This document shows, one piece after another, positions 26,317-44,081 of a stretch of DNA of 64,000 nucleotides. Position numbers and translations under genes: made by a program. The notes beneath the pieces are model-generated. The model made no database searches, was not told the origin of the DNA, and saw only the letters and a program-made list of their open reading frames with translations. Positions within the stretch are counted from its first letter, which is position 1. Every line of letters starts with the position of its first letter. Source of the DNA: Escherichia coli (GTDB lineage Bacteria; Pseudomonadota; Gammaproteobacteria; Enterobacterales; Enterobacteriaceae); NCBI RefSeq assembly GCF_030013595.1, contig NZ_CP122768.1; one strand, written 5' to 3'.

Positions 26317-26389
26317 AAAAAGGCCACTCGTGAGTGGCCAAAATTTCATCTCTGAATTCAGGGATGATGATAACAAATGCGCGTCTTTC
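26317..26389 (-). ncRNA. micA: MicA (SraD) Hfq-dependent sRNA with intrinsic terminator
   Basis: Minus strand reads GAAAGACGCGCATTTGTTATCATCATCCCTGAATTCAGAGATGAAATTTTGGCCACTCACGAGTGGCCTTTTT, matching MicA as I recall it; located between gshA and luxS. Confidence 0.85.
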
Positions 26390-27029: not shown

Positions 27030-27708
27030 TTTTCAAATGCGCCTATAAGGCTCTCTTACCAGCCGCGCCCTAACAGGCGCACACGATCTGACATTTGCAT
27101 CCAACTTCGTTACTTACGGCCCGTAAACGGGCTGCCCGGATAGGGAATCGATAACTGATCTCCCATTTTATCCTCTTCAAGCTGGTGCTTTATGTAATCC
27201 TGTATCTTCGCCGTGTTCTTACCCACTGTATCGACGTAGTACCCTCTGCACCAGAACTCCCTGTTCCTGTATTTGAATTTCAAATCACCAAACTGCTCGT
27301 AAAGCATCAGACTGCTTTTCCCTTTCAGATATCCCATAAACCCGGATACGCTCATTTTGGGCGGGATCTCCACAAGCATATGGATATGATCTGCACAGCA
27401 TTCAGCTTCCAGAATCCGTACGCTTTTCCACTCACACAGCTTTCTCAAAATACTGCCTATTGCTCTACGCTTCTCTCTGTAGAACACCTGTCTTCGGTAT
27501 TTTGGCGCAAAAACTATGTGATATTTACAGTTCCATCGGGTGTGCGCTAAGCTCTTTTCGTTCCCCATTGGGACCCCCTTTTGATTTCTTGTTTGACACT
27601 TGCAGTTGCCAGACCGCAAGGTGTTTTAACAAATCAAAAGGGGTTTTAATAACTGGCTCAAAGCTGAAAGCTTTCCGGAACCCCCAGCCTAGCTGGGGGT
27701 TTTCTGTG
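27030..27708 (-). mobile_element. IS200-family insertion sequence (IS200/IS605 family); ends approximate
   Basis: HUH tnpA ORF; left end (high coordinates) has two hairpins typical of IS200: cccccagc..gctggggg terminator-like hairpin and a long stem-loop occluding the tnpA RBS; lies between convergent luxS and emrB terminators. Confidence 0.8.
27110..27568 (-). CDS. tnpA: IS200 transposase TnpA (HUH single-strand transposase)
   Basis: 152 aa from MGNEKSLAHTRWNCKYHIVFAPKYRRQ; HxH motif (HIHMLV) and catalytic Tyr (RGYYVDT). Confidence 0.9.
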   Translation of the reverse strand: MGNEKSLAHTRWNCKYHIVFAPKYRRQVFYREKRRAIGSILRKLCEWKSVRILEAECCADHIHMLVEIPPKMSVSGFMGYLKGKSSLMLYEQFGDLKFKYRNREFWCRGYYVDTVGKNTAKIQDYIKHQLEEDKMGDQLSIPYPGSPFTGRK

Positions 27709-41450: not shown

Positions 41451-41632
41451 GATTCGTATTTCCGTTTAAAATGAAGATACGGCGCGATGATACGCGTCGG
41501 GTTGTCTCTCTGTTGATACAGAGATACTAGATGTAGTTGAAAAAAGATTCAACCACACAATATATAGCAAACAGTGGTCGAAATTACCCTGGGTATGAGC
41601 GTGACGGGGTAGGGGGATTTTTGTGATTCAGC

Positions 41633-41666
41633 AGACAAAAAGAAACCCCGAAGCCAGGCTTCGGGG
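41633..41666 (-). terminator. Rho-independent terminator of ygaM
   Basis: Minus-strand hairpin ACCCCGAAGCC-tg-GCTTCGGGGT followed by TTTCTTTTT. Confidence 0.7.
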
Positions 41667-41697
41667 TCAAAGACGCGTATTTATTATCATTATTGCA

Positions 41698-42559: not shown

Positions 42560-43009
42560 TCAGGCTTTTACCTGCTGGTAACGGCTGACTTTAAACAGTC
42601 GGCGGCAATAATCGAGGAAGTAGCCATAAACCGCCCCCATCAACATCGAAACAACGATGTTTGAACTGACCGCCGCCATAATCTGATGCCAGTCTGCGCC
42701 CACCACTAACAAGATCGCCACATACACCGGTGACTGGAACGTCACATAAGCCATGATATCCGCCAGATTTTTTATCCAGCCCGACGGGCTAACTTTGCGT
42801 GCTGCGCGCATAAACAGATCGCGGTACATACCGTATGGCCATGCAATTAAGATGTTCACCGGAATCGCTACCAATCTGGAATAAAAAGACTGTTCGAAGC
42901 TCATTCCGGAGAGGAAAACTTCAATACACATGTTCACGACAGAACAGTAAACAACCATCGCGAACGTATCTGCAACTGCATGACGCAAGCGTGACTGCGG
43001 TGAGAACAT
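42560..43009 (-). CDS. alaE: L-alanine exporter AlaE
   Basis: 149 aa from [30 protein letters not shown]-track start is over-extended. Confidence 0.85.
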
Positions 43010-43676
43010 GCTAATGCTCCTTAATAAAAGCGTAATGGGATGTGAATGGAGATGAAAGCAGTGGATCTCATTGCCATCTGCATTTTCGCATAGCGTATAT
43101 CGCTGGCTATGACTAATCAATTAGTGAAAAATTTTTATTTAATCTGTTTTTGTAGATAAAATATTCCGTAACGGCGCGTTTTTTGTATATTGTGGATTTT
43201 TACATGCCAATATGATTTATTTTTAATTAAATCAATTGGATATGTGTTTACCTTTATTTTCACTCATGAAGGTTTGGGGGGGAGGTAACGCTATAAGCGT
43301 AGAGAATTCGGTGTATGTCGTGACCGGGTCATTTTCAGCATTTTTTATGCCAGATAATGTACATTGACAGCAGAAAGCACCAGTGATAGATGTTTTCTTT
43401 TATTCTGTTGAGTTGCATTTTTATTCACTTTGGTTTTGTCAGGCTTGCGGAGTTAGCGAGCAGAGAGCGCCGCTCTGCTCACAAATAACCTAAATTACTC
43501 ATCAAAATGGCTAATATATAATCTTGAAATTATTCTGAGAGTTTCAGAAAATAACAGCTGAAATAATCTCGCGCAGGACTGTAAATAGATTAAATTTTGT
43601 GGAAATATAATAAGTGATCGCTTACACTACGCGACGAAATACTTTTTTGTTTTGGCGTTAAAAGGTTTTCTTTATT

Positions 43677-44081
43677 ATGTCCGTAATGTTACAAAGTTTA
43701 AATAACATTCGCACTCTCCGTGCGATGGCTCGCGAATTCTCCATTGACGTTCTTGAAGAAATGCTCGAAAAATTCAGGGTTGTCACTAAAGAAAGACGTG
43801 AAGAAGAAGAACAGCAGCAGCGTGAACTGGCAGAGCGCCAGGAAAAAATTAGTACCTGGCTGGAGCTGATGAAAGCTGACGGAATTAACCCGGAAGAGTT
43901 ATTGGGTAATAGCTCTGCTGCTGCACCACGCGCTGGTAAAAAACGCCAGCCGCGTCCGGCAAAATATAAATTCACCGATGTTAACGGTGAAACTAAAACC
44001 TGGACCGGTCAGGGCCGTACACCGAAGCCAATCGCTCAGGCGCTGGCAGAAGGTAAATCTCTCGACGATTTCCTGATCTAA
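43677..44081 (+). CDS. stpA: H-NS paralogue StpA
   Basis: 134 aa; H-NS family N-terminal coiled coil and C-terminal DNA-binding motif (TWTGQGRTP). Confidence 0.95.

Follow-up and report, generated by a model that had tools for sequence, protein, structure and literature searches.

The alaE-stpA intergenic region of Escherichia coli is very probably a shared control region without a gene of its own

We analyzed the spacer between the divergent genes alaE and stpA in a 64,000-nucleotide stretch of Escherichia coli DNA (contig NZ_CP122768.1), which we call the window. This spacer is very probably the known control region shared by the two genes, with no gene of its own inside it. It is an ordinary region that is already known and that has been dissected experimentally in K-12. 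A comparison across the Enterobacteriaceae showed three parts, an alaE-proximal part of ~240 bp and an stpA-proximal part of ~90 bp that are conserved and a center of ~340 bp that is not, and signals of a coding sequence or of an RNA gene were absent.

Results

Location and base composition

The open reading frame (ORF) list and the annotation place alaE, the gene for the L-alanine exporter, at positions 42560 to 43009 on the minus strand and stpA, the gene for an H-NS paralogue, at positions 43677 to 44081 on the plus strand. The spacer therefore measures exactly 667 bp (43010 to 43676), in agreement with the ~660 bp given in a preliminary description of this DNA. The RefSeq annotation used is that of strain HCP5S3_I2, which is 100% identical to the window over positions 42900 to 43800; K-12 is 96.5% identical over the same segment. 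The spacer is present once per genome in 5,419 of 5,426 complete E. coli genomes, and neither the NC_000913.3 annotation nor the PGAP annotation has a feature inside it. Within the annotated 50 kb, it ranks second in length among 35 intergenic gaps and is the longest gap between core genes. An origin of the spacer center from a repeat or mobile element was ruled out by its single copy per genome.

The GC content of the spacer is 0.349 (34.9%), compared to 0.506 (50.6%) for the window as a whole. Among 667-bp segments, only 3% are equally AT-rich, and all the others lie in the 53- to 58-kb zone. Since the remaining intergenic DNA of the window has a pooled GC content of 0.406, the spacer is very AT-rich genome-wise and moderately so among intergenic DNA. 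It contains 23 A/T tracts of at least 4 bases, versus 14.9 ± 2.6 in dinucleotide shuffles (z of about 3). These values bear out the earlier characterization of the region as very AT-rich DNA with A/T tracts. The same description had called the DNA curved, which the helical phasing did not support: the AA/TT phasing value at 9.5 to 11.5 bp was 5.7, within the shuffle expectation (95th percentile, 7.4) and not significant. Promoter-like sites were not in excess within the spacer in a consensus promoter scan. By a rough estimate, internal repeats in the spacer occur at about the level expected by chance for AT-rich DNA.

Conserved promoter-proximal ends and a variable center

We searched for AlaE in one genome per species and obtained 80 loci, in 58 of which stpA lies divergently upstream. 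We compared the spacer among these 58 species of Enterobacteriaceae and among 12 genomes of E. coli. Across the 58 species, the divergent spacer is 475 to 789 bp long with a GC content of 0.31 to 0.43, and its conservation follows the three-part pattern described above.

On the stpA side, the transcription start site (TSS) has been mapped to MG1655 position 2,798,556, downstream of a perfect TATAAT -10 hexamer (PMC10301672). This start site is silent in the wild type and active in a Δhns strain and in run-off transcription in vitro with purified RNA polymerase (PMC10301672). Mapped onto the window, it falls at position 43618, which places the -10 hexamer at 43606 to 43611 on the plus strand and leaves a U-rich 5' untranslated region (UTR) of 59 nt (43618 to 43676, plus strand) with an AAGG ribosome-binding site at 43662 to 43665. 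This stpA-proximal zone of ~90 bp is 93 to 98% identical across Escherichia and 100% identical in the 12 E. coli genomes, with the last 87 bp invariant despite a 6.5% difference at the fourfold sites of the flanking genes. A second TATAAT-like hexamer, read from the sequence at 43517 to 43522 on the plus strand, lies ~95 bp upstream of the stpA -10 hexamer; it has no good -35 element and is kept within Escherichia as TATAAT or TACAAT. We set aside the stpA promoter predicted from genomic SELEX (gSELEX) (PMC3946193), which is ~450 bp from the gene and conflicts with the mapped TSS.

The alaE-proximal ~240 bp holds blocks that are 90 to 100% identical across the 80 species. Closest to the gene is the Shine-Dalgarno sequence AAGGAG (43017 to 43022, minus strand), which is conserved in the 80-species alignment; all 30 aligned species share its GGAG core without change, and the flanking A's vary. 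Conservation peaks at a putative sigma-70 core promoter on the minus strand (43092 to 43120), with a -35 element TTGATT at 43120 to 43115 and a -10 element TACGCT at 43097 to 43092, 17 bp apart. We infer this promoter from its conserved architecture: TTGnnn-17-TAnnCT occurs in 70 of the 80 species, always with the 17-bp separation, and the -10 element ends 61 to 86 nt from the ATG. Overlapping it is the block AGCGATATACGCTATG (43104 to 43089, minus strand), which is 90 to 100% identical in the 80 species. The predicted TSS of alaE is at ~43085, which would give a leader of ~75 nt.

Immediately upstream of the candidate promoter is an AT-rich, near-invariant block of 46 bp, GAATATTTTATCTACAAAAACAGATTAAATAAAAATTTTTCAC (43121 to 43166, minus strand), in which most positions are 90 to 100% identical across the 80 species and which probably contains one or more sites for Lrp or another activator. 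A more distal conserved block, CCAATTGATTTAAT (43228 to 43243, minus strand), is the outer half of an imperfect 21-nt palindrome, an inverted repeat at 43202 to 43245. An Lrp footprint reportedly lies ~83 to 161 nt upstream of alaE, a position that presumably coincides with the conserved blocks between 43089 and 43243. An alaE promoter predicted from gSELEX at ~43263 to 43236 (PMC3946193) was set aside because the site is unconserved.

The center (43250 to 43590) showed no detectable sequence constraint. It is 94.1% identical to the window in MG1655, 88% identical in the sister lineage (L004), and 55 to 58% identical in E. albertii and the cryptic clades, and fourfold-site divergence in the flanking genes is 6.5%, 13%, and 29 to 34%, respectively. 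The similarity of these divergences indicates that the center evolves at roughly the neutral rate; insertions and deletions are numerous, and gaps are found in 30 to 95% of the other genera. The center nevertheless stays AT-rich, with a median GC content of 0.38 in 60 sequences. Relative to K-12, 4.5% of the whole spacer and 5.9% of the center differ, and the stpA core promoter and leader are untouched.

Control by H-NS and Lrp

The stpA TSS, silencing by H-NS, occupancy and bridging by Lrp, and the effects of Lrp on both genes are established in the literature. The cited experiments were all done in K-12, the spacer of which is 4.5% different from that of the window. The spacer was flagged as bound by H-NS and as an RpoD-holoenzyme binding site in gSELEX (PMC3946193), and transcription of stpA is H-NS silenced and, in minimal medium, Lrp dependent (PMC4668568). 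Chromatin immunoprecipitation (ChIP) of Lrp gave a double peak at the locus, with one peak on the spacer and the other inside the ygaP ORF (44128 to 44652, minus strand) (PMC10127797). Removal of the ygaP peak decreased Lrp-mediated activation of stpA more than 5-fold, and atomic force microscopy (AFM) showed that purified Lrp bridges an stpA-alaE DNA fragment and does not do so when leucine is added (PMC10127797). The effects of Lrp were large on both stpA and alaE, including by qRT-PCR, and a PalaE-lacZ fusion showed mild repression by Lrp in minimal medium and strong activation with leucine (PMC10127797). Activation of alaE by Lrp with L-alanine or L-leucine is also attributed to Ihara 2017, as cited in PMC6801825.

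These reports bear on the earlier expectation that the region is an H-NS/StpA autoregulatory target. The H-NS part agrees with the published binding (PMC3946193) and silencing (PMC10301672). The expectation left out Lrp, which is the best-documented regulator of the spacer, and it left out the alaE side, since the spacer is equally the promoter region of alaE.

Sequence motifs for these proteins did not stand out in the spacer. The Lrp SELEX consensus YAGHAWATTWTDCTR, which is highly degenerate, had two matches with 3 mismatches (43091 and 43523) and no enrichment; in the whole window there were 105 matches versus 84 ± 11 expected. The H-NS high-affinity motif tCGATAAATT had no match in the spacer at 1 mismatch or fewer and four matches at 2 mismatches, and it was not enriched in the window. 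That motif is not obligatory for H-NS binding. Both motifs are too degenerate or too rare for such scans to carry weight. Binding of H-NS and Lrp is driven by composition rather than by sequence. In the absence of a motif or phasing signal, protein binding to the spacer rests on the published experiments and not on motifs.

Search for small protein genes

We traced every spacer ORF of at least 8 codons on both strands in 12 sequences from E. coli and 5 from elsewhere in Escherichia. The best candidate was a 32-codon ORF, MFSFILLSCIFIHFGFVRLAELASRERRSAHK (43390 to 43488, plus strand), with a hydrophobic N terminus and a basic C-terminal tail, a shape that we take to resemble those of type I toxins and small membrane proteins. 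All 12 E. coli genomes keep this frame open, the sister lineage nearly does, and the ORF is confined to these. The frame is interrupted in E. albertii, as it is in two of three sequences from the cryptic clades; the third has an open frame for an unrelated peptide. Its start codon is ATG or GTG, and reading the sequence by eye showed no obvious upstream Shine-Dalgarno sequence. The variants of the ORF in 13 sequences comprised 19 nonsynonymous and 10 synonymous changes, including L6R within the hydrophobic stretch, for a dN/dS ratio of ~0.5 (P = 0.07). The ratios for five control frames of the same DNA were 0.33 to 1.47, so that one frame that is not an ORF (0.33) did better than the candidate. 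The stpA control in this test had 0 nonsynonymous and 4 synonymous variants. We judge the 32-codon ORF to be noncoding.

We reached the same judgment for a 20-codon ORF (43083 to 43021, minus strand), the stop codon of which abuts the alaE Shine-Dalgarno sequence. Its frame is intact in E. coli as well as in E. albertii, and in the cryptic clades codon 6 is a stop. The ORF had 5 nonsynonymous variants and 1 synonymous variant (dN/dS of ~1.25), it occupies the least conserved part of the leader, and its ATG is at or before the predicted alaE TSS. In an alignment of 60 spacers, no ORF combined a constant position and frame with a conserved peptide. The most frequent ORF, found in 39 of the 60 sequences and not kept in E. 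coli, overlaps the conserved alaE promoter on the opposite strand and is explained as a by-product of it.

Database and literature searches agreed with these results. Nine spacer peptides, among them that of the 32-codon ORF, had no meaningful match in Pfam or NCBIfam, and none of six, again including that peptide, was present in an exact look-up in a collection of 15 billion proteins. A Ribo-RET supplement, the table of which is possibly incomplete, had no coordinate in the range of the spacer, and an Enterobacteriaceae microproteome supplement had no match for stpA, alaE, their b-numbers, or the 32-codon peptide. The spacer also had no partner antisense RNA (by Rfam) or terminator for the 32-codon ORF.

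Search for RNA genes and structured leaders

The search of the spacer with Rfam gave only noise (E values up to 10). At the gathering score, the whole window contained only MicA, STnc490, and tRNAs, none of them in the spacer, and the orthologous loci of 15 other species had no match. There were no sites resembling intrinsic terminators on either strand of the spacer, and the predicted RNA folds of nine segments on both strands were no better than those of shuffles (z of -1.0 to +0.64). The alignment of the alaE leader from 30 species gave 10 predicted pairs, consisting of a 5-bp hairpin that joins the Shine-Dalgarno sequence and the start codon and a 5-bp hairpin in the coding region, with 0 compensatory changes. 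The alignment of the stpA leader from 29 species gave 0 predicted pairs, and the E. coli fold had a z value of -0.75.

The center also holds a GC-rich inverted repeat at 43458 to 43480, GAGCAGAG-AGCGCCG-CTCTGCTC, which can form a hairpin of 8 bp. Its folding was no better than that of shuffles on either strand (z of -0.7 and -1.0), no T-run follows it, and it was not called a terminator. E. albertii and the cryptic clades lack it, and it is not conserved past E. coli and the sister lineage.

The K-12 Term-seq tables list consecutive 3' ends at 2,798,048 and 2,798,243, both belonging to stpA, and then at 2,800,533, and they have no 3' end in MG1655 positions 2,798,400 to 2,799,299. Thus, under the conditions that these tables cover, no stable RNA with a 3' end inside the spacer was seen. 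Since stpA is silent in the wild type in rich medium, transcript and translation surveys there could miss products that are silenced together with it.

The length of the spacer had been thought to leave room for an unannotated small ORF or small RNA (sRNA). The suggested conservation analysis across the Enterobacteriaceae revealed no conserved ORF, and the idea of an sRNA found no support in Rfam, terminators, folding, covariation, or Term-seq 3' ends, with the center of the spacer close to neutral. This is the outcome that the preliminary description had itself named as refuting the idea.

Discussion

We favor the explanation that the spacer is the control region shared by alaE and stpA. The alaE-proximal ~240 bp provides a ribosome-binding site, a short unstructured leader, and the candidate sigma-70 promoter TTGATT-17-TACGCT, and the near-invariant AT-rich blocks above this promoter are most likely Lrp sites through which Lrp bound to L-alanine or L-leucine activates alaE. 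The stpA-proximal ~90 bp provides the mapped promoter (TATAAT at 43606 to 43611, with its TSS at ~43618) and the 59-nt U-rich leader. The central ~340 bp may be AT-rich filler, the sequence of which is free to change, and may act as a low-specificity binding surface both for H-NS/StpA, which keep stpA off in the wild type, and for Lrp oligomers. The second Lrp site, inside ygaP, is needed for full activation of stpA in minimal medium.

A hidden small protein gene, either the 32-codon ORF or the 20-codon ORF, is very improbable as an explanation of the spacer. The 32-codon frame stays open throughout the E. coli genomes and nearly so in the sister lineage, with a dN/dS ratio below 1, and the 20-codon frame persists into E. 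albertii next to the alaE ribosome-binding site. However, the 32-codon ORF sits in the neutrally evolving center, is outperformed by a control frame, alternates its start codon, breaks outside its own lineage, and is unannotated in K-12 and by PGAP, and the 20-codon ORF accumulates mainly nonsynonymous changes. Just as improbable is that the spacer encodes an sRNA or a structured cis-regulatory leader, such as a riboswitch or attenuator, for alaE or stpA. The 667 bp would give room for one, the TATAAT at 43517 to 43522 is conserved, C-to-T changes in the 3' arm of the GC-rich hairpin would retain G-U pairs on the plus strand, and the small hairpin predicted in the alaE leader spans its Shine-Dalgarno sequence and start codon. 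Against this stand the lack of family matches, terminators, and fold signal on either strand, the 10 alaE leader pairs without a compensatory change, the stpA leader without any pair, the gap in the Term-seq ends, and the restriction of the GC-rich hairpin to E. coli and its sister lineage.

A more serious alternative, which we nevertheless think doubtful, is that only the promoter-proximal ends are functional and that the ~340-bp center is neutral and AT-rich through mutation bias rather than through selection for binding of H-NS or Lrp. Divergence of the center equals or exceeds that at fourfold sites, insertions and deletions are abundant, its length varies ~3-fold among species, the other intergenic DNA in the window is likewise AT-rich (GC content of 0.41), and the spacer gave no motif or phasing signal. 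However, all 58 species retain an AT-rich spacer of at least 475 bp where deletion bias would be expected to erode useless DNA, the center contains short islands that are invariant across Escherichia, the spacer is reported to be bound by H-NS (PMC3946193), and binding of these proteins follows composition rather than sequence. The opposite proposal, that selection on length and AT-richness keeps the center as a platform for an H-NS/StpA filament or Lrp bridge that couples both promoters, is one to which we give little credence. Such selection on physical properties would explain why every species has an AT-rich spacer of at least 475 bp despite neutral sequence turnover. More remote is the idea that the 32-codon ORF is a young, lineage-specific microprotein gene with expression limited to conditions that relieve H-NS silencing. 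Our preferred explanation remains the shared control region, with its center as a proposed protein-binding scaffold.

As a textbook-style divergent promoter controlled by nucleoid proteins, the region matters little in itself. The analysis is of use as a clear negative for hidden genes, as a map of ~330 bp that are constrained and ~340 bp that are free, and for a conserved candidate core promoter of alaE.

The spacer is the same locus as the K-12 stpA regulatory region (Sonden and Uhlin 1996 and Free and Dorman 1997, as described in PMC4668568 and PMC10301672), where H-NS silencing and Lrp dependence are documented. Over the last 87 bp, which hold the TATAAT -10 hexamer, the start site, and the 5' UTR, the spacer matches K-12 exactly, and the differences (4.5% of the spacer, 5.9% of the center) include none in the core promoter or leader. 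It is likewise the same locus as the Lrp-activated promoter of alaE (ygaW) (Ihara et al. 2017, J Biosci Bioeng 123:444, as cited in PMC6801825; Ziegler and Freddolino 2023, PMC10127797); relative to that published promoter, the core promoter proposed here comes from comparison between species.

The 32-codon ORF resembles Ibs, Ldr, ShoB, and TisB in its hydrophobic N terminus and basic C-terminal tail. Unlike these, it has no family match, obvious Shine-Dalgarno sequence, antisense RNA, or terminator, is unconserved past E. coli and the sister lineage, and shows no detectable purifying selection. The spacer as a whole is similar to the H-NS-silenced proU, bgl, and hns promoters in being AT-rich, enriched in A/T tracts, derepressed in Δhns strains, and part of a regulatory loop between paralogues. 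It differs from them in lacking a high-affinity nucleation motif and significant helical phasing. The locus is also like the Lrp-bridged or looped dadAX, ilvIH, and pap systems, in which Lrp sites that are hundreds of base pairs to more than 1 kb apart cooperate and leucine dissolves the bridge. Unlike in those systems, one partner site here is inside the neighboring ORF, ygaP, and the whole stpA gene lies in between.

Repeats and natural variants of the alaE-stpA spacer

Two imperfect repeats tie the conserved block upstream of alaE to other parts of the spacer. The first is a 23-nt direct repeat, with copies 83% identical, shared by this block and the variable centre of the spacer (43131-43153 and 43417-43439). 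The second, a 13-nt inverted repeat matched at 12 of 13 positions, pairs the block with the stpA -35 region (43137-43149 and 43583-43595). These repeats may be repeated protein-binding motifs; by a rough estimate, repeats of this kind are near the chance level for AT-rich DNA.

Orthologous loci from other genomes showed two departures in the alaE half. In E. coli QL57EC (locus L093), IS1X2 was inserted in the spacer and the N terminus of alaE was missing, and therefore the alaE-proximal half is dispensable in at least one isolate. In Citrobacter amalonaticus (locus L011), the region upstream of alaE (the leader) carried a GC-rich insert with a GCCCCTGAGGGGC hairpin, at about 2900-2965 of the locus, which pushes aside the otherwise conserved promoter block and may be a small repeat element.

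RNA 3' ends and other RNA features

Among the RNA 3' ends in published Term-seq tables is a strong "orphan" one at MG1655 2,800,553 (-). This end corresponds to position ~41628 on the window + strand (…GGGGTAGGGGGATTTTTG) and lies within the ygaM-nrdH spacer (41451-41697) on the strand opposite to that of both genes. No Rfam family was found in the region of this end (window ~41570-41630, + strand), and there was no consensus terminator call on the + strand there. The orphan end could belong to a short divergent RNA leaving the nrdH promoter region. The same tables place an RNA 3' end within the stpA ORF, 252 nt in (MG1655 2,798,243), which corresponds to about 43929 on the window. Elsewhere, the window contains the MicA sRNA between gshA and luxS (26318-26389, -) and, between luxS and emrB, the IS200-associated STnc490 RNA (27578-27701, -), which adjoins an IS200C transposase.

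H-NS motif matches and another AT-rich zone

Three matches to the H-NS high-affinity motif, with one mismatch, cluster within ygaP, at 44423, 44585, and 44606. It is in this ORF that the distal Lrp peak enhancing expression of stpA has been reported.

Positions 54981-58320 form a large AT-rich zone in which GC falls to 0.285. In a near-identical E. coli strain, this zone is annotated with an alpha-amylase pseudogene, IS3, and ypjCB. A tRNA at 56336-56408, tRNA-Ile according to that annotation, lies inside the zone, where the window differs from the near-identical strain and the tRNA position is shifted by ~1.3 kb.
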